From NCBI GenBank assembly GCA_008632985.1, contig QPGO01000170.1:124001-160339 (forward strand): DNA of 36,339 nt, in the 5' to 3' direction. A program made the position numbers and the translations under genes. This DNA comes from Psammoneis japonica (Eukaryota). The notes under the pieces were generated by a model, which had not been told where the DNA came from, did not search any database, and saw only the letters and a program-made list of their open reading frames with translations. Positions 1,123-28,600 of this stretch are shown here, one piece after another; positions within the stretch are counted from its first letter, which is position 1; each line of letters opens with the position of its first letter.

Positions 1123-3523
1123 GTGTGCCAATGTTGTGGTTTGTTTGTGATGCAGCAGCTTTTGTTTCCTTTATGTATTACCCGAACTTCTAATGACAAT
1201 GATTGTGTTGTTGCGTCGAGAGCGTGCGTTTTTCAGTTCACGTTGCTTGGGACGTCTTTGGAAGTGAGACTGTCGAAGAAAGTTACGTAGAATTTGTACT
1301 GAAACAGTCTGTCAATCAGTGCGATGGGGGCATTTGGGAACACTGGACAAATCCTACGTGTTTCATTTTGCGTACAAATTTTACTGGGAAAACCCCGAAA
1401 CGCACAGACGGACAGTACATTGTTTGGCAGGCAGCTCTCCAAAGACGTCATCCAAATGAAAGATACAGTACGGACGACGAGCGAGACGGCAAACGCTGAT
1501 GACGGACCCCTGCCGCAGTCTAGACTACTGTATTCAAACTGCGCGTGAGACGGGAAGTTGGCTTGGGGGTGCGGTGCGGAAGAGGTTGAGCATGCTGGAT
1601 GCACGAATCATCGCGATTGCGACCACATCATTCAGTGCATGCGGGCCACGTAGATTCTACGCACGCGCGCCATGCTCTTCATCTCAATCGTGGCGGGCTC
1701 AACAAGATTGGTCTTTTCGTCTCATTCGTGGATGAACCATTCGCAGTTTCTTTTTTGGTGCATTCGGCAAGCTTGTTGCAAAGGAGCCAAAGCCAAACTT
1801 GTGGATTTGCTCCTTTGCTCTGATTCAAGCAGTGCAGACATTTGAGGAGGACCTCAACAACAAGTCCACGGCAAAATCAATGATGCATGGCTCGCTCTGT
1901 TTGCCGGGGCTCTGGGACATGCCTCTTTGTTTCTCGTGGTGCAAAGCTCAAGGACAGACTTGCCCAACTGTGACTGGCACATCTGTCATTTGACTCATGT
2001 GCCAGGTTTGGAAGACTCAAGCCAAGGACCACCTGTGCAGCAGCAACAAAGGCAAAGTTGATGACAGGAGTGGCCCCAAGCTGTCGCGCCCAGTGTGCAC
2101 TGATCTGCAGCAGGTTTGGGTGCATCAGCCATGCAGCACCACACGCAATCACTCATTTGTCTGCCTGGCTCTCTGCAAATCTACAAAGCCACTGTGAATC
2201 ACATGAAATGCAAAAACAATGGCCCTCAGCCAGCAGAAAACAAGTGTTCATAAAAACAGGGTGTGCAACAAAGCAGATTTGTTCCCACCAGCATGCACCA
2301 CAACTTGCAGATGCCAGCAGCATCTTGCATTGTGGGGCTCCCATGGCAGGTGATGCACAGCCCAAAAGCATGTGCCACACATGCCTGCACAAACTCAAAC
2401 TCACTCTGCTGAGAAGTGGGCAGGTTGATGGCGTTGCTGCACTTCAACCGGGGAGTGGCTGGCCTGCACAGTCATGAGGGTTGAGCACTCAATTGGCCCA
2501 CAAAACCCTGTCTGTCAAGCAAATGCTCTGTGCACAATGCTGCTCATTGCCCAGCACTTGCTGGGAACTGAGATGAGCTTCTTGAGGCAAAGGTCTTCAC
2601 TTGTGGGTGAGAAGACGCCGGCGCACATGCATGGCATGAATGGGCGCTTTGCACAACTGGGGGTTTTGGAGCAACACACCACCAGCTCAGAAATGGCCCT
2701 TGCAAGTGTCAACAGTGGCAATCAACATGCCCCAGCTTTGGTGGATTGAACCTTGCACTGCTGCACTGTGACATGAGAGTTTTTTGATCATGCGCCACAT
2801 GTGTCAGGCACGCACATCTGTGTGCATGCTCTTCTGCAAAATTGCCCCATGCTCCCAAATGCTTTTTGTGTTGCTTGCTTGTGAGAACAAAAACAGTCTG
2901 GGTGCCCTGGGCAAGTGCCCAGGGTTTCAAGAAAATGTCACCACTTTTTGCTCAATTTTGTGAAAATGTTGGTGCTCTCAACATTTTTGGATTCAAAAGA
3001 CAGTTGAGGGTGGCCTGGAAAGCTGGCCAAAGACAAAAGCACCTGGCTGCATCCATTTTTCCATGAAAAAGTGATTTTTTTTAGCTCTGCACCCCAAGCC
3101 CCACCAAACAAATGATGTCACACATTGAGCAGCAACTCTCAAACTTTGAGCTGCAAAACTGCATGACAATTTGCTCTTTCATCTCAAGAGCACACAAGAC
3201 AGTTAAAAGTGACTTTTTTCCACCACAGAGACAGCAAGGCAAATGACCACATTGACAAACTTTGCAGGATGATTGCTTTGAGTGCTGTTGCACAGACATG
3301 GCATTGTCGCACCTTCAAATCTGACACACAAAATGACACATTTTGCTGTCAATTTTGTGCACAGTTTGTGATGTGGAGTCAGAACACCACAGTTTTCAGC
3401 ATGCAAATCACCAACAATGTCAATGTGACATGACAACAAAGCCTCCACTCCAGCACATTCACTCAACAACTGGTTGGGATTTGTGATGGCTTCAATGGTG
3501 TGCCGATTGCAGGGGCTGCATGA

Positions 3524-3925
3524 GATGGCAATGTTGCCATGTTGCTGTTTTCTTGAAACCCCACAGAAAACAATGCACTGCAAGCATGGGTTTTTTTCTG
3601 TTGACAATGTTCTTGGCAGAGAGCCCACATGCAACATTTTGCAGGTGCAGCATTGCATGGAGATCTGCCTGTCAGTGCTGGGGTGCATCAATCTTTGTAG
3701 CTGCTCAACACCTGTCTCCCAATTTGCACTCAGCGGAGAAGAGCCAATGGAAAGAAGGTGCATTTCTCAAACCTTCAGCTTTGAGATGGCACAATTTCCA
3801 CTGATCTGGTGTGTGTCCTCATGGGGCTCTGTTGACAGTGACAGCTGGCAACAACGCTGGATGGCGCTGTTGCCATGTTGCTGTTTTCTTCAAACCCCAC
3901 AGAAGCAACACACTGCAATCATGGG
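3524..3925 (+). repeat. ~66-bp dispersed direct repeat pair (3524-3590, 3860-3925)
   Basis: gatggcaatgttgccatgttgctgttttcttgaaaccccacagaaaacaatgcactgcaagcatggg vs gatggcgctgttgccatgttgctgttttcttcaaaccccacagaagcaacacactgcaatcatggg. Confidence 0.8.
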
Positions 3926-4348
3926 TGAGTTTGTGCACACACAAAATTTCTTTTTAAGGTGCTTTTGACAGTCACTGGTTGGTTCATCAGCACCACCTGA
4001 TGTTTTGAGTGCAGAGCTCACACACAGCATTCTGGCGTGGGTGCAATGTCCATCTGGGACGCCAACAATCTGGGTCTGACCATCTGCCATGATCTGGGCA
4101 TTTGTTGACTTCAATGCCAGATTGTTGTCAACTTATGAGCCAAGTCTCTCCTCAAACACAATGTGAGAACCACACAAGTTTGCAAGCTTCTAAAACCCAA
4201 ATCGCTTCCCACTTTTAAGTGCGGTCATTCTTTTCACACAATGGCGACCTGCACCTCAATTGACATTTGCAGTTTCTTGTTCTTTTGTCACAAATGTTGC
4301 TGCTTGTAATCCACTCGTCCTGCATTTTGTCTCTTTGCTGTGTTGTTT

Positions 4349-5536
4349 TCAAATCCAAACTCCCAACTGCCACACGTTCTTGCATCTAAACCGCTTTGCA
4401 GAAAGTTTTTCACATTTTTGCTTTTCTGGATTTTGTTGTTTGTGTTTCAATTTGCACTTGCACACCAGTTTGGTTGGCCACCATTGCAGCATTTGCCACC
4501 GCTCCATTGCCTGCAGCCACCGCCTGCAATGGCAGGTCCTCTCCCATCGGCACCGCCCATCCTTCCTCTCTCTCCTTTCTCTTTTCCTCTCTTTTGCGTT
4601 TCTTGTTTTCCTCCTTGGACAAGCTCGTCTTCTCTTGCCTTCTCTCTCCTTGAACCATGCACCGAATCCCTGGTTGTTCTCTCTGTCTTTCACCACCCAC
4701 TGGCACAGATCATTGTGCTTCTTGATCCCCTCCTTGCTCCATCCTTGGTTCCTCTTTGCCAATTCCCCCACTGCCTGCGCTGTGTGCTTTGCAGGAGCAG
4801 AGTCTTTCACTGTCAGCTTTCTTCTCCTTGCAACATTTTCTTCCTTTTCCAATTTCTCGGCCGTGTCCTTCACCTTGTTGCAGTGGCTCAAGTGCACTGG
4901 CAGAGCAAACGCCTCTGACGAAATGGAAAGCCACTCCTGAAGCATGTCGGTTGTGCTTCCACCAAACTGCGCTTGTCCCACCACCATCGGCACCACAGTT
5001 TCCAAGAACCATGCGCGTGTGTCCTTGTCATTTCTTCCCTTTGTCAAATCTTCACAATCCACCAGCGATCCCTCTAAAGCAGCAACTGCACAGATGAAAG
5101 CAAAGGAAGCAACACTCATCCCGTTGGACAATCGCCTCCAACACAATCAAAGGCGCGCACACATCTGCTTGCCTGTCATTCTCCTCCCAATGTTGTCCTG
5201 CACATTGTTCCTCTTTTGGTTGAGTTTGGTTCTGAACACCTCTTTGCATTCTTCCCAGAATGCCTCCGGTGAAGACGCCATGCTCCTCAACTCCTGCAGA
5301 ACCAATTTCATGCAATCTCCTCCTGCAGCAAGTTCTTGATCAAAGATTGTGAACTTGCCATGTGGCCAAACACTTTCATTGATTGCCTTTGTCAGCACAT
5401 CAATGCTGTCAATCTCTCGCCCACCGCTGGTGCATGATCCAACACAAGACATCCCTCTGTGGGAGTCACCACCGAACTTGAATCCCCACCTGTGCCTGGA
5501 ATCTGTTTGGTTTCCCATGTCCATTTCTTTGTGCAT
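4349..5536 (-). pseudogene. Decayed two-exon gene, transposon-associated hypothetical protein
   Basis: ORFs 5147-5536 (VWPHGKF...FWEECKEVFRTKLNQKRNNV) and 4349-5146 (SSEAFAL...KHT...GWSKEGIKKHNDL...KDR) join in frame (M-T-V-A-A-L-E-G) if an 87-bp intron 5172->5086 is removed. The motifs resemble proteins I recall beside diatom Plavaka-like transposases (unverified). Confidence 0.5.
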
Positions 5537-6307
5537 GCAACAAGGCCGCCACCGCAGGACTCATGGTGACTTCATGTGACACCACACAGGTGAGCCCAAT
5601 TCAGTCAGTTCTTCAGCAACTCTTTGTCATGTCCTTTCTCAACCTCACTTGCTGCTGGAAGTTGCGCTTCCTCCCTCCATTGCTCCTGTGAGAACTGCAT
5701 CTTCCATCCTTTTTACCTTCCCAATGGCTTCCTCTCATTTGGAACTTCTGTCCTTTCCTGTCACTTTATGAACAGGCAAGTTGCAAAATGAATGCACTTT
5801 GCATGTGATTTTCTCTGTTTTGTTGTTGCTTGCATGTCCTCTCTTGATTCAAACATGTCTTTGCATCATTTTTGAGTGCTCATTCCCAACCCCATGTTTG
5901 AATTTCTGTCAACCTTCCACTGTTTTGAATTGCGCACCTTTGCCAGCCAATCTACAACACACCAATGAAAATTGCAACATCATTTGGGTCAATGTCAAAC
6001 AACACATTTTACACTCTTGCATTGGTGCATGCATTGTGCCTGCTTCCTGATGCAACATCAGCTTCATTTGGTTCAATGAGGTGTGTCAAACCTCCTGTTT
6101 GTTTGTGCAAATCCACATTGCTCATTGTCTCTTGTCAATTCATCCCTGTCTCAATCAGTCATTCTCTCTGTTTCCCCTGCACCACATCTCTCCAATTGCT
6201 CTCTCTGTTGCCCAAACTGTCCAGCCCACTTTCCAGTTGTTCAATGTGTGTGTGCATCAGCAAAAGCATCCGTCCACAATTTCACACATTCCCTTTTTAG
6301 TCCTCCA

Positions 6308-7072
6308 ATGGCTGCCAAAGCATGTCATTGTCACTGAGATGTGGTCGTTGTGAGTCGTTCCTGTTGTGGGAACGTGCGCTCCCTCCATCGCAATCACATG
6401 CAGCCAACTGATGATCAAATTGGTTGTTTTGCTGGTGGTGGCGTGGAATCACACGGCAGCATGGCAAGCTTTGCCTTCTTCACTGAGGTTGTTTGTAACC
6501 CTGCTCTCCTTGTGGCCCAAACTTGCAGCCCTTTTAATTTCATTGACATTGGTGGTGGTGTTGCCGGTTTTGCGATTGCCTGTTGTTTGCTTGTTCCTTT
6601 CTGCAATGCCTGCAGCATTGAGTTCCACCGCCCCCCTCATGATTTGGGCTCTCAGTGGTGCAATGCCATCTGGCCTGACCACACCAGTTGCTGTCCCACC
6701 CTGATCAATCAGGACTTCCTCTCTGAAGATGATGCTGTGCGTCAGTTGTGCCGTCAGAACAACTTAAAGATTTTCTTCAACAACTGCAATGGGCGAATGC
6801 TTTTTGACGACAATGCAACACAGAACCAACTCAAGGAGATGCTGCCCAATGAGTGTCCTGAAGGTGCTGTCATCATTTCGCTGGACGTGATGTTTTGTGC
6901 GCATGCCCACAAATGGAGGCATGAAGCATTCTTTGTTCCTGCCTGTCCAGACGATCCATCATGGGGAGGCAGTGTCAACAGGCACCCACTTCACAAGTGC
7001 ACCAAGAAAAGAGACGATGCCGTGGAGCCAAGGCATTCCACCAGGAATGACCCAGGGTCTGACATCAAATGA
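6308..7072 (+). pseudogene. DOT1-like (H3K79-type) class I SAM-dependent methyltransferase, hypermutated
   Basis: Motifs in DOT1 order: HGS (cf. YGE), FIDIGGG (cf. FxDLGSG), SIE (cf. GIE), QDFL, IFFNN (cf. IFVNN), PEGAVIISL (cf. KEGGRIVSS). ATG at 6308 is in frame, with a TGA at 6335 (plausibly CGA->TGA). Confidence 0.65.
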
Positions 7073-7234
7073 AAATTTGAGCCCGCCAAAAGTGGGCAAC
7101 TTGGCACTTTCCCTTTTTTTGTGTGACTTTCTTCCATGCAAGCAATGCATTGTCAATTGGCCCTTCGCACAAACTTGCTTTTTACCTTTGCTGACTTGCT
7201 GCTCAGCCAGTTTTGCATTCCAACAACTGCTTGT

Positions 7235-8243
7235 TCACACGCTCACTGTGTCGAAATTGTGGACTGGACATGCCATGTTCCTTTGATCCGAGTTCTTTTT
7301 GTCAGGCAAAGCTCGGTGCAACATTCTTGCATCAAAAACAAATGCAGTGCCTGCTTCTCCAACCAGCAATTGTTTTTCCAAACCCAACCTGACCAAGTGT
7401 TTTTTGCATTCCTTCTCATTCAATGTTGCCTCACAACCATCCAGCCATGTCTCAACTGCACCATTGTCCTCCATTGTGTCATCGAGGAACAGAAACATGG
7501 TGAAAATTTTGTCGCCAGGAAACAATTCTGTTTCCACGCAATCACAATGAATTTCCCCCTTTGACCAGAAGTTTGATGTTGAGCTTGAAAACTTGAAGCA
7601 GGGGCGTTTGCTGCTGTGTGCCGGGATGTCTTTCTGCATGAATCACCTGCTGGGGGAAAGCCAGGAATTGACCCCAACATTTTTCTGCCAACTCAATGCC
7701 TTCCGCCTTGTCCTTTTTGTCAATGATGAACTCACTGACAAAACGGTGTCCTTCCTTCTCTTGCTTGCTGCTTGGTGCCTTGTTTGCCAGGGTTGCAATC
7801 TTGTTGAACAGGGGTTGTGGTGTTTTGAATTTTTGCAAGCAGCCTTTTTTTCCTTCCTGGTGCACTCTTTCTTTGGACCCGGCCATCTTGCTCTTGACGA
7901 CATGAGATTTCATTTCACCCGGGTGTGCCAGTAACTTGCTGTGTTTCTGACATGATGTTGTCGGCCAATGGGCAAATTTCCAGCATCCGTCAACAGAACA
8001 CTTTTGCACCATTCTCTGAACATGCCGGCTCCACCAAATCAAATGGAACCCAGTCTTTTTTTTTAAGCAGAACAGACCCAATTCAGCGAAAGTCCGCATC
8101 CATTGCTGTGCAATGAGCATGGCTTTCTTGTGAAATCTGTGTTGCCAACGGCATCTGTTGGGTGCACGGCAGACGTTTTTTTCGTAAATGGTCCAGTGTG
8201 ATGTGATCTTCGTCCATCCTCTTTGCTGCATGATCTCATTCAA
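7235..8243 (-). pseudogene. PhyH-like 2OG-Fe(II) dioxygenase, frameshifted and hypermutated
   Basis: GEIHCD (HxD), TMFLFLDD..DNGAVETW, GEAGTAFVFDARMLHRA (distal His) and a downstream Arg in ORF 7235-7639. The N-terminal part probably lies in ORF 7542-8243, with a frameshift near 7560. Confidence 0.65.
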
Positions 8244-8435
8244 TGGGTCATCCCAGCTGTCTCAAAGCACAGAAAACAATTTGGTTGCACACTGTCTTGT
8301 CAGTGTTTTTGTGTGATGTTTTCATGTTGACACCGCGGCCAACACAAAGGAACAGCCACCATCCACCATTCATTCCGCACCAAAAACAAACTCTTTTAGA
8401 ACAATGTGTGCAATGAACAACTGCAAATGATGCTT

Positions 8436-8735
8436 CGGTGTCACTTTTTAATTGACACACCCACATGTCAACAGATCAATTTGGTGCCATTTTTTGTTGA
8501 TGCACTTGTCTGCCAACAGACCAATTTGGCACAACTTTTTCATTGTTGCACACATGTGTTGACATGTGTGTTTGGCATCACTTTTTTGTTGACACACCTG
8601 TCTGTCAACAGAGCAACTTGGTTTCACTTTTTTGTTTTGCACATGTGCGCCAACAGAAGAATTTGGTGTCACTTTTTTGTTGATGCACCTGTCTGTTGAC
8701 AGATCAATTTGGTGTCACTTTTTTGTTTGCACACT
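8436..8735. repeat. Degenerate tandem array, ~45-bp unit, ~6-7 copies
   Basis: Consensus approx. ttggtgtcacttttttgttgacacacctgtctgtcaacagatcaat, with an internal inverted pair TGTTGAC...GTCAACA. Confidence 0.85.
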
Positions 8736-9024
8736 GAACAAAAGCCAGTGCATTGTCGTGACATAAAGTGGATCTCCCGCAGCAAACCACATTCTCCCAA
8801 ATCTGGTCCAAGTCGCTGATCAACGCATTTTGAGCAGCAAACGGACAACGTTGGGGCAACTCTGTCTCTTGTCCTCCGCAGCCATGTCATTCCCTTTGTG
8901 AAACAATGACCTCAACATGATCCCACCCCAAAGAATGCCTCCCAATCCCTTGCCTGTTGTGCCACGTTGCTGAAATGGAGCTGACGAATCTCTTTTTTGT
9001 CCGGCGCATCGCACTTCTTTCCTG

Positions 9025-13157: not shown

Positions 13158-13400
13158 ATGGATGAAGCAGAAGGGTTTGTTCCAATTCCGAGAATCGAAA
13201 CTGAGCGGGACCAACCAGCACTTTTAGACAAATTAGCAAGATCTCACTGTTCGCTGCACTTGCTGATGGAAGGACCAACAAGGAGTGGAACCAACAGATG
13301 CTTTTAGATGGGTTGACACGCCTTCACAGCAAACTCATTAGAACACTGACAGAGTGCTTAAAAAAATTTACGAGCGTTTCCTTTTTCCCAAGGTGCGTTG

Positions 13401-14858: not shown

Positions 14859-15715
14859 ATTGTCAACCCATTGAGCAACCGCCATCATCGTCGTTGATTT
14901 TCCAACGACGCTGTTTTTAATTCTGCGTGGACCTCCGTACATGTTCTACATGCATCGGCAAGTCTGCGCGCATTCAATGCCAGGGCATCGGCAGGAAGTT
15001 AACGTCACCGTCAAGTCTCCTCACCGCTGGACATCTGGATTGATCATGCTACCTTTGATCGCTGAAGACATACATTCAACGGTCACATCCAAGTCCATCC
15101 TTGATCCTCATCCCTTGATGTACCTGTTCACATCTTCACGGCCAAGAACCTGCACCCACTCTTCGGACTGCGGTTTTGCTGCCACTCTGCAAGCACACCG
15201 AGTCCATTGCACCTGATCTACCCCGGACCACTGGTGCTCTGCAGTTCCACTGGGTCCACGAGGACGACTGTGAGAGCAAGCAGCCGTGATTGCAGCCTGC
15301 GTTGGGGCGAGGGTGCTTTCCCGCGTTTGTTCGTTCGTCCACAGCGCCTGACGCCTACGTCAACTGGCCAGCCTGATCGGGAAATCCAACCGATGTAAAA
15401 TGAGAACGGTTCGGGGGTCTTGTCCACCTCTGGTCAGCTTACCTGCAGGGGTTTACAACCCGCTGCTCCGCTCGTAAGCAACCCAAAGCGCCACCAGCTG
15501 CGGGTTCGGACGTGCCGGCACAACTCTACGGACCGGATAGGAAGTTTAGCACTCAACAACGAACGGGATGACAAAGCCCGGCGACTTCTGATTTTTAAGA
15601 TAGTTCAAGATTTCAAGTCAAGTCTGTTTCAAGTCAAGTCCACTCTCACCCAAGTTTCGAGTCTACCTTCGCTTCCCAACCAGAATTGATTGTCCTGACA
15701 CCATTTTTGTCTACC

Positions 15716-18700: not shown

Positions 18701-21385
18701 CTCCACTGGCGCACGCCCCTCGAGACTCTCACTGGATCCACCCCGGACATCAGCCCATTGCTTCGCTTTCACTGGTGGGAACCAGTGTGCTTCCACCTCG
18801 ATGACTCCGATTGGCCGTCCGAATCTCGTGAGTTGCGTGGACGCTTCGTTGGCATTGCTGAGCACGTCGGCCACCAGATGACCTTCAAGATTCTATCTGA
18901 CGAGACTCAGAAGATCCTCTGCCGGTCCAACGTTCGCTCCGCCACCCCCGATCCTGCCGTTCGAAACCTGCGTCTTGATCCTCCTGATGGGGAGCCACCT
19001 GAACCCATCATCAAATCTCGCCATGACGACAACCCCGTCGATTCTCCTGATGGGGAGATCAGGACACCCAAGATGCCAGTTTTCGATCCGCAAGACATCA
19101 TTGGACGTACCTTCCTCATGCAGCCACAAGAGGATGGACAACGCCACAGAGCTCGCATCGTCAAGGCCGTCGAAGACCACGAATGGAAAGTGAACGGCAA
19201 TCCCGAGCTCACTAAGTTCGTCTGCTCTGTCAACAATGACGAATACGAGGAAGTCCTTGCCTGCAATGACATCATGAATCACATTGAGCAAGAAGACGAA
19301 GACACCACCATTTGGAAATTTCGACGCATCGTGTCACACGAAGGCCCTCTGAAGCCTCACGACCCAACCTGGAAAGGCTCAAGCTACAACATCATGCTTG
19401 AATGGGAAAGTGGGGAGATCACGTCCGAGCCTCTTGCCATCATCGCCAAGGACGACCCCGTCACCTGTGCCATCTATGCACGAGAGAACGGACTCCTCGA
19501 CACGGATGGATGGAAGCGGTTCCGCACCATCGCGAGGCGCCAAAAGAAGCTATTTCGCATGGCCAACCAAGCCAAGCTTCGCTCCTTCCGCACTGCACCT
19601 CGCCACAAGTGCGGATGCGAAGTTCCCCGGAACTACAAACACGCCATGTCACTAGACGAACACAACGGCAACCGCAAGTGGGGAGACGCAACTAATCTCG
19701 AGATGGACCAACTCGACGAATACGAAGTCTTCCATGACTGCGGGCCCTTCAAGTCTTCCACTCCTCCTGCGGGACACAAGAAGATCCGAGTCCACCTGGT
19801 GCACGACGTGAAACACGACGGTCGCCACAAGGCACGACTCGTAGCCGACGGGCACCTCACGGACGTACCTGTCGACAGTGTCCACTCCGGAGCAGTCTCC
19901 CTTCGTGGCCTTCGGCTGATGATTTTCCTGGCCGAACTCAACGAGCTGGAGACATGGGCCACCGACACTGGCAATGCCCACCTTGAAGCCACCACCAAGG
20001 AGAAGCTTTACATTGTAGCTGGACCCGAATTTGGCAAACTCGAAGGACACATCCTTGTCATCCACAAGGCACTGTATGGACTCCGCAGCTCCGGTCTCCG
20101 CTGGCACGAGCGCTTCGCCGACTGCCTGCGAGCTGAAGGCTTCTTCCCCTGCCGCGCCGAACCCGACATTTGGATGCGCAGGAACGGCGACCACTGTGAA
20201 TGCATTGCCGTTTATGTGGATGACCTCGCCATTGCCATGAAGGACCCTCAATCTTTCGTCGACACTCTCACGGAAAAGTGCAAGTTCAAGCTCAAGGGTG
20301 CGGGACCCATTGAGTTCCATCTGGGTTGCGACTTTTCCCGGGACCCCGACGGAACCTTGTGCCTGTCTCCGCGCAAGCACATCGAGCGCATGGTCGACAG
20401 CTGCGCCCGACTGTTTGGGGAGAAACCTGCCACCAATGCCCTGTCACCTCTAGAGAAGGGTGACCACCCCGAACTGGACACTTCCGAACTGCTGGGACCC
20501 GATGGCATTCACAAGTTCCAGTCTCTTGTTGGTTCACTCCAATGGGCAGTGTCCCTTGGTCGAATTGACATTGCCACGGCCGTCATGTCACTCTCTAGCT
20601 TCCGAGCTGCACCCCGTCAAGGCCACTTGGATCGTGCCAAACGCGTCTGTGGGTGCCTCTCCAAGATGCGACACGGTGCTCTCCGCGTTCGCACGGAAGA
20701 GCCCGACCATTCGGATCTCCCTGCTCCGGCCTACGAATGGATGCATTCCGTGCATGGTGAAGCAGAAGAGATGATCCCGAAGGACGCTCCACCGCCCCTT
20801 GGCAAGTTCGTCACTGCCACCCACTGCGTCGATGCAAACTTGCACCATTGCATGCTCACCGGACGCTCTGTCATGGGAATGCTCCACTTCCTCAACAAAT
20901 TCCCGGCTGATTGGTTCTCCAAGAAACAAGCCACCGTGGAGACTGCAACCTGCGGATCTGAATTTGTTGCCGCAAGGAATTGTGTTGAGCAGATTGTCGA
21001 CCTGCGCATCACCCTGCGCCACCTTGGCGTCCCGATCCGTAATGTCAGTCACATGTTCGGTGACAACAAGTCGGTTGTAGACAGTGCCACCATCCCGCAC
21101 TCCAAGTTACACAAGCGACACACCGCACTGTCGTTCCACCGTGTGCGTGAGGCAATTGCCTCTGGTTGCCTTGAGTTCCACTTCATCGAAGGCTCCCGCA
21201 ACCCTGCTGACATTCTCAGCAAGCATTGGGGTTGCTCCCAAATCTGGGACCTTCTCCGCCCCCTCATGTTCTGGAACTTCATTCCATCCGAAGTCGAATC
21301 TGTTTCTGTGGCTCCTCAAGCAAACTGGGGAGTGACAGGATTTGAACAGGATTTGGATGCGCGCGAAGCATCGCGCGCTGTTTAG
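15716..21385 (+). CDS. Copia Gag-Pol polyprotein (open frame, missense-riddled)
   Basis: ATG at 15716 (MVLTRQ). Protease LVDRGANGG (~17405); integrase ATDTV / ISDRAQVE / QNFAE (~18285-18575); RT KARLVADGH, KALYGL, YVDD (~19830-20225); RNase H VDAN, GSEF, FGDN, NPADILSK (~20830-21225). Confidence 0.95.
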   Translation: MVLTRQQQTDGFEHVVGTVLAQGAGSPLRLALAQDGTDSHQELFTFMPSQIDSLECDNGTNAIPLPRGCENMLAALVSLYIVKAHKGLDVANDSSLFTHDEFLACRLSPDCMSSVSIGSSPLAPPHVTNPTKARDPVRDFKRGIKRDPTAFTALKSDKQWHTWHTSLVAQARAQDVECTLDSSYKPTSPEDKLLFAEQQKHMFAVFERILLTDKGKALIRENVGSSDAQTVHRSLSAHALASTRASVESSTLLTHLTTARLGDGTWKGPTHGFILHWQDQLRKYEALIPASDHFSEGQKRVMLENAVHPVEELRAVKNQADQHRTQSGKSLTCDQCCGLLLSAAAQCDSTFQPKTTPRAPRRAMCAHDVCSEEPSDDVFYDIDSDVDVLQANAACTRGPSLTGVQWRRLPPDHQRLWDSLPDSTKAIILEHSRPPPRNPRASDHHESVMANLHDQHLGSDGDVNLSNTTPADCGDPATHVDATSDDPILAHLTKRKPLPPGDLQRLLSPNQAPNASRPGPSAASSTPPASADDMELNGRTCRRVNNHNVICSASAHRSTRTGALVDRGANGGIAGDDVRIIARTSRQVDVQGIDDHQLVDIPIVTAGAVIETQRGPVIAILHQCACTGKGKTIHSCGQLEWCKQDVNDRSVKVPNGLQRIATPDGCVIPIDIKAGLPHVAMRPCTDAEWDTLPHVILAGDDTWDPSVLDHSVTDDDQWCDAISDPQDDPTANLFDECGNCRHRVIVNETILSASLSADHASALDDHLIPNDDVFYECHLHAIDPTGDDVPPPERTVKPKDPPFESLRPCFGFPPADAVRRTFDCTTQHARMPAGTHLRKACKSPNPALNVHRRNEPIATDTVHADTPAVDSGCTSAQLFVGTESTVTDVCGTETDKEFVNTLEDQIRERGAPSKLISDRAQVEISNKVLGILRALFISSWQSEPHQQHQNFAEHRCQTVKRMANTVMDRFGSPAHTWLLALMCVCFMLNHAASPRLHWRTPLETLTGSTPDISPLLRFHWWEPVCFHLDDSDWPSESRELRGRFVGIAEHVGHQMTFKILSDETQKILCRSNVRSATPDPAVRNLRLDPPDGEPPEPIIKSRHDDNPVDSPDGEIRTPKMPVFDPQDIIGRTFLMQPQEDGQRHRARIVKAVEDHEWKVNGNPELTKFVCSVNNDEYEEVLACNDIMNHIEQEDEDTTIWKFRRIVSHEGPLKPHDPTWKGSSYNIMLEWESGEITSEPLAIIAKDDPVTCAIYARENGLLDTDGWKRFRTIARRQKKLFRMANQAKLRSFRTAPRHKCGCEVPRNYKHAMSLDEHNGNRKWGDATNLEMDQLDEYEVFHDCGPFKSSTPPAGHKKIRVHLVHDVKHDGRHKARLVADGHLTDVPVDSVHSGAVSLRGLRLMIFLAELNELETWATDTGNAHLEATTKEKLYIVAGPEFGKLEGHILVIHKALYGLRSSGLRWHERFADCLRAEGFFPCRAEPDIWMRRNGDHCECIAVYVDDLAIAMKDPQSFVDTLTEKCKFKLKGAGPIEFHLGCDFSRDPDGTLCLSPRKHIERMVDSCARLFGEKPATNALSPLEKGDHPELDTSELLGPDGIHKFQSLVGSLQWAVSLGRIDIATAVMSLSSFRAAPRQGHLDRAKRVCGCLSKMRHGALRVRTEEPDHSDLPAPAYEWMHSVHGEAEEMIPKDAPPPLGKFVTATHCVDANLHHCMLTGRSVMGMLHFLNKFPADWFSKKQATVETATCGSEFVAARNCVEQIVDLRITLRHLGVPIRNVSHMFGDNKSVVDSATIPHSKLHKRHTALSFHRVREAIASGCLEFHFIEGSRNPADILSKHWGCSQIWDLLRPLMFWNFIPSEVESVSVAPQANWGVTGFEQDLDAREASRAV
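21322..21332 (+). promoter_or_regulatory. Polypurine tract
   Basis: aaactGGGGAG directly abuts the TG of the 3' LTR. Confidence 0.7.
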
Positions 21386-21608
21386 TTCACCGCGCACAGT
21401 TTTGTGTGCTTTAGTTCCGCGCGTTCACGCGCGATGTAGTTTGCTTTCGAGCCACAAGGCTCACAAGAATAACAACAGTAGCCCGATCATGCCGACTTAC
21501 ACGTCTTTCGGCTCCTGCAACGGTCTCTGAGCGGAGACTCATCTGCTGTTTAGACAGCAGCAAGGAGTCATTGTTTGAATTCTTGCCATTTGCCTTCAAT
21601 TTCTGTCA
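21333..21608 (+). repeat. 3' LTR (276 bp)
   Basis: Matches 14566-14841 at offset 6767. Confidence 0.97.
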
Positions 21609-21613
21609 TGTCT

Positions 21614-24601
21614 GCTCACCTTGCAAAGTTGTCCCGATCATCCGCCAAACCAACGACAAGACCATGTGGTCCGGGCATCAACAATTGATCAGGTGAAGTC
21701 TCAACAGCCCGTTGGTTCCGTCTCAATGATTTGGTTTCATCCCATGCAATCTTCTGGCACAACAAAAAGTGACCATCATCCAGTTGATTGGAAAATGGTT
21801 CCCAAAATTCAGAAAGGCCGTGACGATGCATCTGTTGCATCACACAGCAGGCGACATCCAACCATGTGCCTCTGGGAAGTGCAACAGGCACATTCTCATC
21901 AACCGGGCTTGTGTTTGTTTCACCAGTTTGTTCATTTGATGGTTCAACGGGATCAGGGTCCTCATCGTTGGGTCCACTTTCTGACAATTTGGTCAGTTGT
22001 TCTTCTTGTTGCTTCTTTCCTTTAAAGCCATCAGCCGTCTTTTTCTTTTTGCTGTCAAAGGATGGATCGCACCTTTTTTCCAGCAGTTTTCTGCCAGCGT
22101 GTGTGTGGCCAATGATGGCAAGTGCAAGAAGCTTGCCCACCTTCTCGTCACACACAAGTTGACTGAGTGTGGAAAGTCCCCCATCAACTCAAATTCGCGG
22201 ACAGTCACGTCTCTGACCAGGACGACAATGGGATGTGCAGAACAATTCAGATGCAATCTGGCCGCACTCCTCTTTCTGTTTGGCAGACATGTCTCCTGTT
22301 GTTGCCTCCATCATTTGAGGGACAATGCCCACCTCCAACACATGCATTGTGTCAGCAATGGTCATGCCAAATGCACCGCGTGGGCTGTCACCCATGCCAA
22401 GTGGAAAGTGAGCATTGTCCACCATGTGCTGTCCAAACACTTTCCTCAACATTTTGGAGCACACAGTCATTCGGCGAATGAGGGAGGAAGCCAGCTCAGT
22501 CTCGGCCTTTTTTTTTTGATGTCATTGCACGATGCTTCCGGGCAACGCTTTTGACATGCTGGTGCCAACAGCTGTTGTCATCCTCTGGATCTGGGCCCAA
22601 TGCAGCAACAGCGAGCAACTCTGTGAAAGCCTGGTCAAAGAATTGGCAGACATGGAGGGGATCATCAGAAAGGTGGGAGGGCACATGGCAGTTGTGAGAC
22701 AACCTCTTGGTCTTGCTTTGGCCCCATGTCTCTTCCACAAATGTGTTCTTGATTGAGGACATCCCCCAACAGGGAGTTGCAATGCATTGTGGCTCTGACA
22801 CAGCAGCATTGAGTGCCTGTCATTGCACGAACAATGGGTGGATTTGCCTGGCAATGAAGCAGACCACGGAGAACCTCCTTGAGAATGTGGTGGCAGTTGG
22901 CAACAACAAGGCACCCAAGCTTGTCTTTCTTGCATTTCTTGTCCAAATTGGGTGTGAATCCAAGTGGATGCCAACAACGACAGTCGCGGCGTGTGTCCTC
23001 TCGAATCATGGCAAGTGAGTGCATTGCAGGCTCCATCCCATGAGGATTGACCGCATCAACTCCAGTCTTGTCCGGGCATTTGACAAGGTGAATGTGAAAG
23101 TCAGAGGCTGTTTCCTTGGCATTGGAGCAATGTTGTTGCCACTCGCCATCACCCATGTCTTGACTTTGAGTGGACAATTGCCAGTCACCAGGACAATCCA
23201 GGAACTGCATCTCAACACTGTCAGCCTGGCCAGCACTGGAACCCAAATCACCGTCAGCAGTGGGTGGCACACAAGGTGACCAGATGTCATTTGGATTGAC
23301 CTGCAACTTGGAAAGATCACGGAACACTGGCTTGGCAAAGAGATCCTGCAAGGTCTTGGTGAAACTGCAAACTGGGAAAGGTGGGGAGTGACAACATTTT
23401 GGTCCATCCTTCTGTTGCTGCATTGGATTGTTGCATTCAAGCATCACAACAGCAGTGCGGGGGAGAGGAACATTGGGAAATGGCCCCAGGAGTTGCTTCA
23501 TTGCCACGGTGGTTGTGATGGGGGCTTTGACACATCCAGTCTTTTTTCTGCATGCTCTTCATGCTAAATTCTCATCACTTTGTCAATGAAGTCAATTGCG
23601 ACACCTGACCGATGACATGAATGATGCAAATGCACTGTGGGTGCAATGCTGGGTGAGTTGACTGGAGGTGCATCAAAGTCCTCATTGGGTGCAACATCAT
23701 GCACTGGGCCAAGAGGATTGTGTTGATTGAAGGAAGAAACAGGCTCTTCCATTGGACGGGAAATTGAGGGGGGCCCAGAACTGCCATTGAGATGGTCAGC
23801 TCCAATGAACTCGGGGACATCCACAGGACTGTCCTCTCCAAGGGCAGACACGCCATTGTCTGCAAACAAAACAAATTGGCGGGCATTTTGGGAGGCTGCA
23901 CTGGCAGCAGCAATGTTGGCGGCTAAACGCAATTGACCAGACCGTCTGATGGAGGGTGGGCGCAGTCCATTTCCGGCAGAGGGAGGGCAAGCTGGAGAAG
24001 AATTGTCCGATGGTGTGGGAGGAGATGGAGCTGGATTCCAAAGGACTTTGGGGAGGGGAGGAGGGGGTTTGTCATCGGCAAAACCAAACCCAGCAGGATC
24101 GTCATGGTCGTCCAGTGATTCATCATCTGCAGGGGGGAGTGCATTTGTGGCATTGGAAGATGCGGCATGCCGGCAAAGGGACATTTCCTCCTTTTTGCGG
24201 CAGGGCAAGTGCTTCTGTAGATGAAGGGCGATGTTGGAAAAGGGGACACGGCAATGGGGGCATTTGGGTTTGTTGGTGTTGGACCCAAGGGAGCCAACGG
24301 AGGCGGAATCCAGAGGATGAGAGGAAAGAGATGTTCTGCCGCATGGGGAAGACAATTGGGTTGCATGGCGCAACTGTGTCAATGGGGGATGAAGGCCAAA
24401 TGCAGCAGCACAGTGCCGAGATGGGTGACACTGCACATTGTTTTTGGAGTCAAATCCACATTGTCTGCAACGAGGACAACTGAAAGACTTGGTGGAAACG
24501 GCAGAACGGAGGCAGTTAGTTCTGATGTGCCTGCTGAGACCACGTTCGGAAAAGAAGCCAGTTTGTTTGCACCATGGACAAACAAGACCATCAGACAACA
24601 T
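21614..24601 (-). pseudogene. Plavaka-like transposase, N-terminal and core portion with C2H2-type zinc fingers
   Basis: ATG at 24601 (MLSDGLVCPWC...LSRH; CPRC; CPHC...LQKH). Core motifs PDKTGVDAVNPHGMEPAMHSL...WHPLGFTPNL, NCHHILKEVL, LLGD...ICG, VDNAHFPLGMGDSPRGAFGMTIADTMHVLEVGI. Several stops and frameshifts. Confidence 0.75.
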
Positions 24602-25189
24602 GGTCGATGTGCAGAGAAAAAGGAGTTGAGAAGAGAGTCGAAAGGAAACAGCATGTGCAGCAACAATCACTTGGGGATTTGGTGAGGGCAGAAACATGCA
24701 AAGAGAAACAATGTGCAATCAAGGGGGGAAGGCGTTGTGGACAGACGGGATGGAAGGATGGAAGGGGCAGGGAGAGAAAATTTAGAAGACAAGCAGAACC
24801 CACCTTTGCGAACACATGCGGCGATTTTGATCCAGAAAGTTGATTGACACACAATCCAGAAATTAACACAGAATTGAATGAACACACAAGGCTTGTCAGA
24901 TGGGGGGGTGAACAGTTGAATTGAGGAACACAGATGTTTGTTGTTGAACATTTCACAAATGCTGACTTGACAAATCAGCACGATCTTGGATTGAAGGGAG
25001 AGAATGTTGGGTTTTGTTTAAAGAAATCTTGACAGCCAGTGCAACACCTGGATCATTGGTGTCCCAGATGTCACAGAGAGTTCTGCCTGGAGCTGGGGCA
25101 TGCCAACCCATTTGCCACTGCTCAATGCTGGCGCGTGCAAGGCAAAACCACCTCTTCTTGATGTGCACACCCAGCCAGTGGCTGGAGCC

Positions 25190-25625
25190 AATGGCAAGAG
25201 AAGACACACTTCCCTTGCTCCCTCAGCTTTGAGAGAGCACAGTTTCAATTGATCTGGTTTGTTCTCATGGGATCACAACAGCCTGCAGAAGCAGCGCTTG
25301 ATGGTGCTGATGCCATGTTGTGCCATTGTTTTCTCAAACAAGGCCCTGCAAGCAGAGGCAATCTTGCTGATTCATTCACAGCCTGATGTTTCAGTGCAGA
25401 GCTTGCAAGCAGAATTCTGGTGTGGGTGCAACATCACACACAGCCAGTCCTGCCTGAAGCTGGAGCATGTCAACCTCTTTTTGGCAGCTGCTCAATGCCA
25501 ACATCATGTGCAAGGCTCACACAGCCTCTTTGTGCATTCAGCGGGGTGAGCCAGTGACAAGAATGCACACACTTCTGTTGCTCCTTCAGCTTTGAAAGGG
25601 CACAATTTCCATTCATCTGGTGTGT
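25190..25625 (-). repeat. Internal repeat pair (~60 bp core, ~363 bp apart) in decayed coding-like DNA
   Basis: KLCSLKAEGAREVC (~25205-25248) vs KLCPFKAEGATEVC (~25567-25610), with matching DNA. Confidence 0.6.
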
Positions 25626-28600
25626 CCTCAGGGGGCAGTTGGCAAAAGCACTTTGGGGAGAATGCAATGAGTTTGCCAGCAGGCAAGACAGATGCCCGCA
25701 TGAGAGCAGGAGGTGGGTGCAGTCTTTGGTCATGAGAGAGACAGCCCAACAGATGCAAGACTTTGTGGTCAATCAGAACACTGAAAATGCAATTTGGCAA
25801 CAAACAGTTGAAAACACCACACATGAATGTTTGCACCACCCCAATTGAACAGGTGGCAGATCAAAATTTTTGCTGCCAGAAGTTTGTCAATTTTTCAAAA
25901 TGTGACAGAAATGCACAAAAATGTGACACAACATGAGAAGTGACAATGACAACCATGCAGGGATGAAAACAGCATCTGTGCTAATTTCAGGCATGCAGCA
26001 GCAACAATGTGAGCATGACAAGTTTGGCTGATGCAATGTTTTGTTCACTGGTGTCTTGACAACAATGACCCAAACAGGTGCACATCTTGTCGATTGCAGC
26101 TCAACACATCTGGCACATTTTGTCACATGGAAATCAATGAACAGTGTCACACCACATTTGTCTGCCCATCACCCATTTTGTTGCCTGGAATCCATGAGAA
26201 AGAGTTCCCACACTTTAAGATGAGTTGTGCAAGCTTGAGATCTAGGGCAGATCTAAGTTGTGCCACACAGTGCCCTGTTTTTTTTAGAGAGCACCTCAAG
26301 ATGTTCAAACAGAGTGCAAGAGTGCGGTGAGTGGCCCTTGGAAAGCAAAAAAACAGACCAAAATGAAAGCAGGGTGCCAAATTCACAAAAAACACAGATC
26401 TGTTTGCTCCATGATTTGGTGCCTGATGCATGGGCTCTCTTCCCCGCTGTGTTGCAAAAAAACCTGAGATCAGCCTTGCAACACCTGCCAGCATTGTCAA
26501 TTGTCTGCCTTTGATGTTTTTTTGTGCAGCACCATTCTTGAACATCTCAAGAGTTGTGTGGGGCAGGTGGATTTTCAAGAACTTCAAAAGCATCAGACCT
26601 GTTCCAGCTCCAGGTGTCCTGCACAGTGTGTGCAACCCATCACTGGCCCATTTTTGCATTTGGCACAATGAACTCGTCCTTCAAAATTGATTTCCTCCCT
26701 GAATTGAAGGGAGAGTGCATGCAAAACTTTTTTCTTTGTGTGCAGTCATCTTTCAATTTTTGAAATGATCAAGTTTGAAGGAGCTCAATGTGCCAAGCTG
26801 CACAGAAAATTTGCCTCTCACATGATGGAGGATTGCAGATCATTTGGGGCTCCTGGAACAGGCCATCAAGAGCTGTGGTCACACCACCAACTCTGTTGCC
26901 TGCTCAGATGTTCAGTGTCACACACAGCCCCACCTGGGGCCAGAATGCATCAAGAAAATGATTGGCAAGCACAAGCTGGGAAGTGTTGCCCAAATGTTTT
27001 GCTGCTTGTTGCTGGCTCTGCAGCAGCATTGGCCAGAGACAAAAGCCTGGTGGCACTTGACAGCATTGCTTGTGAAAGGTTGAGAGTTGCCAGCCAGACA
27101 CACACTTCAAGCTCTTCAGACAATGTCTGCTCTGTGGCAGCTGGAAGCAAACAATCCAAAACAGCAGTGACACAGAGATGTTGGAGCAGTTGGCCAACAG
27201 CTGGCACAGAAGCTTTTGCCAGGGTGATGCGCGAGAATTGCCACAATGTGGCCACAACTGCTGCCGCACTCAAGCTCACAAAGAAGAAGAAGACAACAAT
27301 GAGGAAGAGCAGAAAAGGATCCAATGAATGCACTGAAGCATGCACTCAAGGGGAAAGACACCAAAAGGCATCAAGGAGAGAGCAAAAGTGATGCCAAGTG
27401 CTTCATTGAGTGAGCATGGTGAAGTCAATGCACAGCACCTGTGAATCAAGAAGTCAGTCAGATGACACACACAAAAGAAACGCAAGATGAAGGGGTGGGA
27501 TCACCCAAAAATGTCTCACATGCTGGACCCTGAGATTGAGAGGCCACATTGACATGTGGGCATGGCATGTGAACATGACACAGTGTTGACAAGTCAGGCA
27601 CACATGAATGAGTGGTTTGCACATCTGGCTCAACAGATCCAAGCTGCTGTGTGCTGCTGCTCTCCCGAGTGCAGAGATCCCTTCAGAGCACAAGAGTGAG
27701 CACAGCCCCCAGAAAGCAAGTGGAGTGCAAGAAGCCATGAGAAAGCAGGTTGCCCAAGCAATTTGGCAGCTGGCTGGAAAGCTGCTGGCAGCAATGCATG
27801 TGACTCAAGCTCACACTCACTTGAAAAAAACAGCAGGAGCAACTGGAACCAGTGAGTTGTGAAGCTCTTTTGAATCCTGACATGATCTCACACCAGTGCA
27901 GTTGGGAGGTCTGCTGTCTGTTCAATGCCCAATTTGCACCACAACACTTGGTCTCTCTCCCTTCATTGCCAACCCACAGCAGGGAAAATGATCCTCAACA
28001 ATTGCACTTGCACTCAGCATGAAAAAATCTGCCCATCAACATTGTTGCGCAACTTGACAGAGTTTTGTTGCAGGCCCACTGACAGTGAAAGAAGAGTGCT
28101 GCTGCCTCAAGAATGGATTTGAGCTCAAGAATGATGTGGCTGTGGGGTGCAATGGCAGTCTTTGAAGCATCGGCTCATTTTGCCATGCATGACAGCCTGA
28201 CACCACACGCAGCCAGAGAACATGAATGAAGTGTGCCAGTCCAAAAAGGGCACCCACATCATGCAAAATGCAAATGACATCACATGTGTGCACACCTGAG
28301 AGAAGCCGCACCATGTCCACACAGGTTCAAGGTGCACACTTGTGTTGTCCACATCCTGAAGATTCGGCATTACAGGAGTTCCAGGTGGACACACACGTCA
28401 AGCTGGGCCGCGTCGACTCTTGCGAGGACTTGTTGATGCCCGTTCCTTGACCGCTTCTTTGAGATCACACACATTGTCAGGAATGGGATGAATCGATAAC
28501 CTGTTCACCGCGTAGAAATATTTGTTGGGGAGCCTGCACAGCAGTTATCGCAGGCCTGAGGGACCGCAACGGAGTCTTGAAACACCTGACACGTTAGACT

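Follow-up and report, generated by a model that had tools for sequence, protein, structure and literature searches.

The question raised by this locus is why a single dinucleotide, TpA, should have nearly vanished from DNA lying between two genes in which it is ordinarily frequent. In the window (the whole stretch of DNA analysed, 36,339 nt), positions 1660 to 28490 contain 142 TA, where about 1,087 are predicted from the flank frequency of 0.0405 (26,831 nt; binomial p 4e-294). The observed/expected (obs/exp) ratio of TA is 0.09 within this TA-poor domain, where TG and CA stand at 1.66 and 1.62; the left flank has a TA ratio of 0.49 and the right flank one of 0.59. A preliminary description had reported the near-erasure of TA over ~27 kb, its replacement by both TG and CA, and the sparing of the neighbouring genes, and these values bear it out. 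The edges that it gave, 1660 and 28490, also agree with individual sites. On the left, TA occurs at 1651 and 1658 and then not until 2182; on the right, it occurs at 26285 and 28371, and ordinary density resumes at 28497. The domain occupies the entire space between two flanking genes, the left ORF (1 to 1170, minus strand, ordinary TA content) facing it with its start and the repeat-rich right ORF (28773 to 30170, minus strand) with its 3′ end. A title naming TA loss was correct but understated the case, since CG is depleted too (obs/exp 0.52 over 1660 to 28490 as a whole). Per nucleotide, the losses of TA (0.035) and CG (0.020) together approximate the gain of TG plus CA (0.064).

Within the domain lies a Ty1/Copia element (14566 to 21608, plus strand), identified by direct LTRs of 276 nt with TG...CA ends (14566 to 14841 and 21333 to 21608), a 5-bp target-site duplication, TGTCT (14561 to 14565 and 21609 to 21613), and an RVT_2 match (E 2e-25) in one long polyprotein frame that is open from start to stop (15716 to 21385). 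The gag, protease and integrase Pfam models gave no match in the element. The frame is colinear with relatives of ~1,850-1,940 aa in a single tblastn segment, free of frameshifts and stops. In three contigs of a public run, 14560 is followed directly by 21609 with an overlap of five letters; these contigs represent other host-repeat copies, in which the site is empty. Members of the Copia family are extremely numerous, their summed contig depth being 63,678-137,033 as against ~58 in the flank. TA depletion is graded, the obs/exp ratio being 0.23 in the Copia element, 0.06 in 1660 to 14565 and 0.03 in 21609 to 28490; the corresponding CG ratios are 0.94, 0.36 and 0.26, with the lowest values (0.08-0.17) at 2001 to 4000 and 25001 to 28000. 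The domain is best explained as a silent, gene-free block in which a young, complete Ty1/Copia element is nested in older, unrecognisable repeats.

The two LTRs of such an element are identical to each other at integration. At present, 12 of their 276 columns differ, all by transitions; reduced to purines and pyrimidines, the two LTRs are 100% identical. These columns correspond to nine events: three TG↔CA doubles, three TA↔CA, two TA↔TG and one CG↔TG, so that eight lie at an ancestral TpA and one at a CpG. Altogether, 11 of 24 ancestral TpA copies are altered, whereas of the 504 other bases one is (Fisher p 1.5e-15). Of the 12 inferred mutations, 11 are A:T>G:C, the remaining one lying at CpG. 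The outcomes at TpA are five TG and six CA, with both types in each LTR. Across 2 × 276 nt, these 11 TpA changes stand against zero ordinary substitutions. Since the LTRs, once identical, now differ at TpA, the change post-dates integration; it is a DNA-level A:T>G:C transition at TpA affecting both strands.

The polyprotein carries the corresponding scars. In 38 columns, tyrosine is conserved in 80% or more of 40 relatives; of these columns, the element now has Cys in 19, His in nine and Phe in three, and has kept Tyr in seven; other conserved residues are kept at 76-100%. Its composition is 0.74% Tyr, 3.0% Cys and 5.0% His, whereas 120 relatives average 3.86, 0.96 and 3.51%, respectively. 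The order of Cys and His along the frame gives 12 runs versus 13.2 ± 2.25 expected, with no strand-coordinated tracts. Could all this arise with no mutation process, either as a sequencing or polishing artefact or as foreign DNA that is intrinsically poor in TA? Our comparison does rest on assembled short-read contigs, and the public run that supplied them may be the source of the assembly itself. However, a 13,260-nt contig of that run crosses the right edge, covering 26652 to 30500 with one differing letter in 3,849 nt, and the pattern is structured: tyrosine codons have become Cys or His, paralogues carry TG where others carry CA, and depletion is stronger the older the element. Furthermore, none of 80 metagenomic relatives has a TA obs/exp below 0.50 (range 0.50-1.02), against 0.23 in this element, and their GC content is 0.39-0.53 against 0.564. 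Ordinary TA in 80 of 80 relatives means that TA poverty was not inherited from the family, and the LTR pair rules out an intrinsically TA-poor composition. We find the absence of any mutation process the least credible of the explanations considered. Relative to other genomic copies, the window differs by transitions at 295 of 348 places; among 40 listed copy differences, five are TG↔CA pairs and 11 have CA or TG in the window where other copies have CG.

Another explanation places the editing before integration, by an ADAR-like A>I activity on retrotransposon RNA or by editing of cDNA, fixed by reverse transcription, so that the element arrived already poor in TA. A preprint (bioRxiv 10.64898/2026.01.13.699255) notes that dsRNA from repeats is a substrate of ADARs and that these favour a U 5′ of the A they edit, and part of the Copia loss may indeed have been inherited from an already mutated parent copy. 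ADAR hyper-editing and APOBEC3 also resemble the present case in producing deaminase-type clustered transitions in retroelements. However, they act on RNA or minus-strand cDNA, before integration, so that their marks would fall on a single strand and be the same in both LTRs. Instead, the LTRs differ at eight TpA sites with TG and CA outcomes in each, and the two strands are affected about equally, for which reason ADAR or APOBEC3 editing of this kind was rejected. The signature also extends to non-Copia DNA, to tandem copies and to a stretch at single-copy depth, and its edges track the inter-gene block rather than the element ends. Pre-integration editing is contradicted as the sole cause, and we regard it as very improbable.

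The older parts of the domain, 1660 to 14565 and 21609 to 28490, are poor in both TA and CG, and the left one is unannotatable. None of 100 stop-to-stop ORFs of at least 90 aa in the two parts passes a Pfam cut-off, a 384-aa frame (23567 to 24718, minus strand) has no relative among 1.84 billion representatives, and 1660 to 10500 is without any protein match. Summed contig depth marks 10501 to 14502 (663-1,075, versus ~58 in the flank) and 21840 to 25174 (1,129-2,514) as repeats. The term 'transposon-derived' holds for the Copia element; for these two stretches, depth shows repeat status. The claim that the loss is repeat-confined is not supported, since most of 25175 to 28490 lies near single-copy depth and is equally poor (TA 0.00-0.05, CG 0.08-0.09). 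Depth there is 66-75 in 25175 to 26508 and 59-61 in 27176 to 28509, compared with 58.5 in the flank; only the bin 26509 to 27175 is raised (422), the other four of the five bins up to 28509 being single-copy at the 90% likeness used for counting, which more diverged copies would escape. Therefore, the target looks like the domain and not repeats as such, which suggests targeting by chromatin state rather than by copy number.

Two tandem repeats in the left part record the same kind of change. In a 46-nt array of 6.5 copies (8437 to 8734), the copies differ mainly as TG versus CA. A 233-nt pair (9508 to 9978) serves as an internal mutation recorder: its 29 differing columns comprise 16 in eight TG↔CA doubles, one TA↔TG, two at CpG and 10 transversions. 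In a flank tandem used as control (34541/34646), just one of 11 differences falls at TpA. The conversion of TpA to TpG or CpA, that is, A:T>G:C on either strand, which had been proposed beforehand, is thus supported by the LTR pair, the tandem copies and the conserved tyrosines alike.

With regard to known processes, deamination of 5-methylcytosine at CpG resembles what is seen in the old parts, where CG obs/exp falls to 0.08-0.36 with a gain of TG and CA. However, it cannot remove TpA, and CpG loss is absent from the young Copia element (0.94). The CpG decay probably reflects cytosine methylation of the same silent block, and part of it could be a matter of how the old elements were composed to begin with. 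Fungal RIP is similar in that a burst of transitions at one kind of dinucleotide destroys selfish DNA where it lies and leaves adjacent genes intact, but it is opposite in direction: it converts C:G to T:A, mostly at CpA, and so makes TpA and stops, whereas here TpA is lost, CpA and TpG are raised and no stops appear. RIP itself was rejected on this direction, which the LTR pair and the tyrosine codons establish. The preliminary description was right that neither RIP nor 5-methylcytosine deamination can remove TA. RIP depends on duplication and on a premeiotic stage; here a stretch mostly at apparent single-copy depth (at 90% likeness) has been struck.

Error-prone synthesis by a Pol-eta-like enzyme, which has WA hotspots, or GC-biased gene conversion among many copies would also raise G:C. 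Among WA motifs, TA is the one most strongly targeted in somatic hypermutation, and the abundant Copia family (depth as above) offers many conversion partners. However, AA is undepleted (obs/exp 1.22 inside, 1.09-1.20 outside), and none of the nine LTR events lies at ApA or at another A/T site outside TpA. Gene conversion has no dinucleotide preference, and it would homogenise the LTRs rather than split them into TG and CA. With the single-copy-depth stretch affected too, we consider both mechanisms very improbable.

A process of this spectrum is already on record, which contradicts the suggestion that it might be undescribed. Mettrop et al. (bioRxiv 10.64898/2026.01.13.699255) report TpA hypermutation in the alga Bigelowiella natans, where it affects integrated DNA of giant viruses and virophages: 230 of 231 mutations in hypermutable regions are A>G/T>C, all of those on TpA, at a 1000-fold higher rate, and the genome holds 124 TpA-poor clusters, with transposon Pfams enriched among TpA-poor CDS. 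The two cases are alike in that only TpA is struck, with TpG and CpA outcomes and a nearly pure A:T>G:C spectrum; in that the effect is regional and sharply bounded, surrounded by normal genome and aimed at foreign or selfish DNA (here Copia); and in forming 1-kb clusters poor in TpA and rich in CpA+TpG. When the preprint's cluster rule, as given there, was applied to 1-kb windows of our domain, 18 passed, 12 consecutive ones at 2001 to 14000 and six at 22001 to 28000, as did one of seven from 15001 to 21001, most of which fall within the Copia element. The flanks match B. natans CDS in TpA frequency (0.0405 versus 0.041) and in CpA+TpG (0.141 versus 0.137), by the values in the same source.

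There are also differences. The direct evidence in B. natans comes from two viral insertions, transposons being only suggested there ('potentially transposable elements'), whereas here, as read from its LTRs, an LTR retrotransposon has been struck after integration. Depletion is much further advanced in our domain (0.03-0.23 versus 0.45 for the B. natans NCLDV region), and it is accompanied by CpG decay and a visible neighbour-base preference. The B. natans rate derives from de novo mutations, whereas the process here is deduced from static DNA. Besides, B. natans has ~8 introns per gene (PMC13746701), with which the three long, intron-free ORFs in the flanks here agree poorly, and the closest relative of a flank protein is 31% identical. 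We give about even chances to an origin of this DNA in B. natans or a near relative of it. We infer that the process is the same as the B. natans hypermutation of integrated foreign DNA, and consider the process as demonstrated here, together with its identity in kind with the published one, highly probable. What the present locus adds is direct proof on an LTR retrotransposon, the neighbour-base preference and stop-free 'ghost' ORFs.

Which base is attacked is less certain. TpA is self-complementary, so that in the sequence an attack on A by deamination looks the same as a modification of the T opposite it. The preprint prefers an adenine deaminase, with an ADAT2-like candidate, and cites reports of DNA-editing activity for amphioxus and trypanosome ADAT2 (bioRxiv 10.64898/2026.01.13.699255). 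The A>I chemistry of ADAT2/ADAT3, TadA and laboratory adenine base editors fits, inosine being read as G. The natural ADAT/TadA target, A34, comes after U33, a U-A step. We know of no natural enzyme with a demonstrated defensive role through adenine deamination of chromosomal double-stranded DNA. The preliminary statement that no responsible enzyme lies in the window was accurate; no deaminase match and no ADAT2/ADAT3/TadA-type gene was found in it. The chemistry that we tentatively favour, at somewhat less than even chances, is that an enzyme deaminates adenine within DNA and the resulting hypoxanthine is read as G. Alternatively, a TET/JBP-type oxygenase or another enzyme could modify T in TpA of silent DNA (e.g., to 5-hydroxymethyluracil), which then mispairs with G or is repaired to C; thymine chemistry of this kind was among the candidates of the preliminary description. 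All sequence results are equally compatible with this, and base J is located at T of TpA in trypanosome telomere repeats. To our knowledge, however, in no natural system does T modification yield near-exclusive T>C at such a rate, and the preprint, as noted, prefers adenine; we give thymine-side chemistry a minor but real chance and leave the remaining probability to other routes.

Taken together, the process acted once the DNA was in place and turned TpA into TpG or CpA, each time by an A:T>G:C transition at one or the other base pair of this self-complementary step. The changes were independent single events on both strands, evidently hundreds of times faster than ordinary substitution, and they cease within ~130 bp where the adjacent gene lies. 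Proteins are wrecked by Tyr>Cys/His replacement while the long 'ghost' frames stay open, because no TpA>TpG/CpA change can yield an in-frame stop. The older parts appear to have been subject to a second and slower clock as well, CpG>TpG/CpA. More speculatively, and with somewhat less confidence than in adenine deamination as such, a chromatin-aimed enzyme might edit A (or the paired T) at TpA in dsDNA as a long-acting, RIP-like, stop-free defence against retrotransposons after integration, with a preference of TAT over TAC, TAG and TAA, alongside cytosine methylation and possibly in a host other than B. natans.

The neighbour-base preference emerged from a two-strand additive model, which fits the survival of the 10 NTAN classes. 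For the base 3′ of the target A, the model ranks T (1.9-2.2) far above C, A and G (0.4-1.1) under two independent baselines. In a 4-mer gain/loss test, CpG decay and the baseline chosen both acted as confounders. At the informative LTR sites, the model gives the right direction of outcome in three of five, and the four TA that survive in both LTRs all lie in T[T/G]TAG.

The present analysis reveals that, in a window of 36,339 nt including one N (at 34816), the dinucleotide TA occurs across the block 1660-28490 at an observed/expected ratio of 0.09, compared with 0.49 and 0.59 in the two flanks (1-1659 and 28491-36339). Where the flank frequency of 0.0405 per nt predicts about 1,087 TA, the block holds 142 (binomial p 4e-294), and TG and CA are enriched there at 1.66 and 1.62, respectively. 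Both edges are sharp: closely spaced TA end at 1651 and 1658, with the next at 2182, and on the right, TA at 26285 and 28371 are followed by ordinary density from 28497. The limits of the block in the preliminary description, 1660 to 28490, are exact. The block occupies the entire gap between two minus-strand ORFs, the left one at 1-1170, whose start borders it, and the right one at 28773-30170, which faces it with its 3′ end. CG is also depleted, with a ratio of 0.52 overall, 0.08 to 0.17 at 2001-4000 and 25001-28000, and 0.85 to 0.99 across 15001-21000. The gain of TG plus CA (0.064 per nt) is nearly balanced by the losses of TA (0.035) and CG (0.020).

A complete Ty1/Copia element (14566-21608) lies within the block. 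It is bounded by 276-nt LTRs that start with TG and end with CA, and the target sequence TGTCT (5 bp) is duplicated on either side. Its polyprotein frame (15716-21385, plus strand) is open and can be aligned in one piece, free of frameshifts and stops, with polyproteins about 1,850 to 1,940 aa long. A search with this polyprotein returned 2,136 proteins at E ≤ 0.001, the best 120 of which are 59 to 71% identical, and 317 metagenome DNA stretches were confirmed for the lineage, of which 80 were kept. The RVT_2 domain is found at E 2e-25 in a Pfam search and is the only one among the models of the usual Copia domains to match. The lineage is characterized by its unusually long single polyprotein (about 1,850 to 1,940 aa); it is plentiful among metagenome assemblies from marine, freshwater, and sediment sources. 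Four of these relatives, used as tblastn queries, detected no further Copia fragments in the window.

The TA depletion is graded with the age of the part and is least in the Copia, where the ratio is 0.23, against 0.06 in the old left part (1660-14565) and 0.03 in the old right part (21609-28490). Corresponding CG ratios are 0.94, 0.36, and 0.26. 

The two LTRs serve as a recorder of mutation, as both were copied from one template and were identical at integration. They differ at 12 of 276 columns, all transitions, and are 100% identical in purine/pyrimidine space. The 12 columns represent nine events: three TG-versus-CA doubles, three TA-versus-CA, two TA-versus-TG, and one CG-versus-TG. A TG/CA double is an ancestral TA mutated independently in each copy, once per strand. 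Counted in this way, 11 of 24 ancestral TpA copies changed (five to TG and six to CA), against a single change among 504 other bases (Fisher p 1.5e-15). Similarly, a 233-nt tandem pair at 9508/9746 differs at 29 columns, 16 of them in eight TG/CA doubles; in a control tandem from the right flank, one of 11 differences is at a TpA.

The coding sequence of the Copia carries the same record. At 38 alignment columns with Tyr (codon TAY) in at least 80% of 40 relatives, the window copy retains Tyr at 7; Cys (TGY) stands at 19 of the others, His (CAY) at nine, and Phe at three. Every other conserved residue class is 76 to 100% retained. Accordingly, the frame contains 0.74% Tyr, 3.0% Cys, and 5.0% His, the corresponding averages for 120 relatives being 3.86, 0.96, and 3.51%. 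The seven surviving Tyr include those of the reverse-transcriptase YVDD (frame residue 1510) and ALYGL (residue 1464); their survival may be due to chance, or it may reflect that part of the TA loss occurred in a parent lineage still under selection. TA depletion is not a trait of the Copia family: none of the 80 metagenomic relatives, in a sample somewhat biased against hypermutated copies since one of two search patterns contained Tyr, has a TA ratio below 0.50 (range 0.50 to 1.02, GC 0.39 to 0.53), compared with 0.23 at GC 0.564 here.

Other copies, seen in assembled contigs of a public run, differ from the window copy at 348 places, 295 of them transitions. Among the 40 listed rows of differences (35 events) are five TG/CA pairs and two of TA versus TG or CA; the window has CA or TG against CG in the others 11 times and the reverse once; the remainder comprises 12 other transitions and four transversions. 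Taken together, the LTR pair, the tandem pair, the Tyr codons, the family composition, and the other copies show a TpA-specific A:T>G:C process acting on DNA after integration and on both strands, together with a slower CpG decay. This is direct proof that an LTR retrotransposon was mutated after integration, by independent events that are specific to TpA on both strands, are confined to one domain, and accrued at a rate far above background. The preliminary description was right in reading the composition as TpA to TpG/CpA mutation.

Editing before integration has also been considered; it is contradicted jointly by the LTR pair, the dinucleotide ratios, the copies and depth in the run contigs, the Tyr columns, and the TA content of the relatives. 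The same joint evidence contradicts synthesis of the Pol-eta type and biased gene conversion, and it contradicts an artefact or an intrinsic composition of this DNA as well.

The summed depth of the run contigs over the Copia is 63,678 to 137,033, compared with about 58 in the flank, and the repeated DNA on either side lies at 663 to 1,075 (10501-14502) and 1,129 to 2,514 (21840-25174). A very small run of the same sample (1,439 contigs) covers 11 of 30 bins, all within 14503-21839. That this run assembles essentially the Copia alone is compatible with a family that ranks among the genome's most abundant sequences. Three run contigs connect 14560 straight to 21609, with five letters shared; this junction represents other copies of the surrounding repeat, in which the site is empty. 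Farther right, at 25175-28509, four of five bins have single-copy depth (59 to 75) and one has 422, and TA is as scarce there as anywhere in the block. This suggests that the target of the process is the domain rather than the repeat count. Within this stretch, at 26103 and 27028, the window has CA where the run has CG, in one contig each (depth 66 and 59); these are CpG>CpA differences at the same locus. In the older DNA, no inverted repeat, tRNA, or Rfam family was detected. The sole similarity that a self-comparison shows for this DNA is short (3524-4046 versus 25072-25636, 72 to 88%), lies in the outermost, most CpG-poor parts, and hints at remnants of a single old repeat family on either side.

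Along the Copia frame, Cys and His alternate in 12 runs, against 13.2 ± 2.25 expected, so that the events are independent and long strand-coordinated tracts are absent. TA survival depends on the neighbors: ATAN classes are almost absent, ATAT has no survivors, and TTAA and CTAA/TTAG survive best. A model in which the TpA loss rate is the sum of two strand-specific terms, each set by the 3′ neighbor of the target A, fits the ten NTAN classes, with terms of 1.86 (T), 0.62 (C), 0.60 (A), and 0.37 (G) for the Copia with the baseline of 80 relatives, and of about 2.2 (T), 1.1 (C), 0.85 (G), and 0.5 (A) in a hand fit to the flank baseline. The four TA that both LTRs retain all stand in the context T[T/G]TAG, and the model foretells the outcome at only three of five single-copy LTR changes. 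In the old parts, TTAN yields TTGN far above TCAN (e.g., TTAC, 4.47 versus 1.08 per kb), which fits an unfavorable effect of an A after the target. Tentatively, TA flanked as ATA/TAT would be the hottest target; in the 4-mer gain/loss test the flank baseline is confounded by CpG decay and the Copia-relative baseline is swamped by the GC difference, and the Tyr-codon neighbors are too few to settle which strand's base is mutated.

In tRNA, ADAT/TadA enzymes edit a U-A step within the anticodon loop. Adenine deamination to hypoxanthine is the leading candidate chemistry here, since it accounts for A>G and that U-A step agrees with the motif. Were the paired thymine modified instead, the record would be the same, as TpA is its own complement and the two routes are inseparable by sequence. 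A natural A:T to G:C activity at a defined dinucleotide in chromosomal DNA would constitute a second, independent mutational genome defence beside fungal RIP and might also yield naturally occurring DNA adenine editors.

In a full-text literature search, TpA-specific hypermutation was found described in one source alone, the preprint of Mettrop et al. on Bigelowiella natans (bioRxiv 10.64898/2026.01.13.699255, dated 2026-04-14); a search on B. natans transposons returned nothing on its Copia elements. According to the accessible text of this preprint, two integrated viral regions in mutation-accumulation lines take 231 of 302 nuclear single-nucleotide mutations, 230 of the 231 being A>G or T>C, and the GC-biased changes all turn TpA into TpG or CpA. 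The rate there is about 6e-7 per site per generation, compared with 3.5e-10 elsewhere, and the process is present in some lines only. The same text reports 324 TpA-poor CDS, in which DDE endonuclease and reverse-transcriptase domains are overrepresented, and 124 clusters of TpA-poor, CpA+TpG-rich 1-kb windows, and names an ADAT2-like candidate deaminase. Therefore, the process, which the preliminary description had put forward as a candidate without confirming that it was undescribed, is already on record; our locus is a clear new instance of this kind, and we infer that the two processes would be identical. Under the cluster rule as the preprint's text gives it, 12 consecutive 1-kb windows (2001-14000) and six more (22001-28000) pass, against one of the seven at 15001 to 21001, which are mostly within the Copia; thus, such a scan would be prone to overlook elements that are still at this earlier stage. 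Beyond the accessible text of the preprint, the locus adds the LTR-retrotransposon proof, a tentative neighbor-base preference, and the co-occurrence of CpG decay and stop-free ghost frames.

The window also holds an internal clock, in that TpA changes far outpace ordinary substitutions, evidence of a kind that the accessible text of the preprint does not contain. From its figures (211 mutations, 6,169 TpA, 3,132 line-generations; 10.64898/2026.01.13.699255), we compute about 1.1e-5 per TpA per generation. At that rate, if transferable to this host, about 5.6e4 generations would be needed for the loss seen in the LTRs (13 of 24 TpA copies remain). Over this time, 552 nt should collect about 0.01 ordinary substitutions; none is observed, which agrees if the rates transfer. 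Regarding targeting, the chromatin state would aim the process at the block. Transposons and repressed genes of B. natans have one common H3K9me3+H3K27me3 state, as stated in the available part of a further report (10.1101/2025.03.17.643675), and this state would be a plausible address label.

The process also reshapes reading frames. TAA and TAG occur at 1.9 and 1.4 per kb inside the block, against 9.7 each in the right flank, leaving TGA as nearly the sole stop. Since TA>TG/CA is unable to create an in-frame stop, long overlapping frames on both strands fill the block; for example, a frame at 16253-17383 (minus strand) lies over 15686-21385 (plus strand). These long open frames are not genes: none of 100 stop-to-stop frames of at least 90 aa in the old parts reaches the Pfam cut-off, and the longest, of 384 aa, has no relative among 1.84 billion representatives. 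The Copia frame itself is still open despite 28 conserved Tyr having become Cys or His. Annotators should thus be warned that such blocks carry long non-gene frames and that an intact frame may encode a dead protein.

Two observations favor B. natans as the host: the signature is known from this alga alone, and the flanks match it in composition, with TpA at 0.0405 and CpA+TpG at 0.141, close to the averages for CDS (0.041 and 0.137) in the accessible text of Mettrop et al. (bioRxiv 10.64898/2026.01.13.699255). In contrast, the three long flank ORFs lack introns, which agrees poorly with the roughly eight per B. natans gene stated in the available part of PMC13746701. On balance, B. natans as the host is about as likely as not, and a new host is possible. 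Pfam matches of the flank ORFs are all sub-threshold, and the FG-GAP flank protein shares 31% identity with its best relative. Fragments in different frames at 32400-33861 (plus strand) resemble the C-terminal part of D-arabinono-1,4-lactone/gulonolactone oxidase (ALO, E 0.0026 at 33661-33861, below the cut-off) and probably represent an intron-containing gene. The right ORF (28773-30170) contains, at 29056-29366, a tandem repeat with a 63-nt unit (4.9 copies, 65% matches), which probably encodes a repetitive coiled-coil segment.
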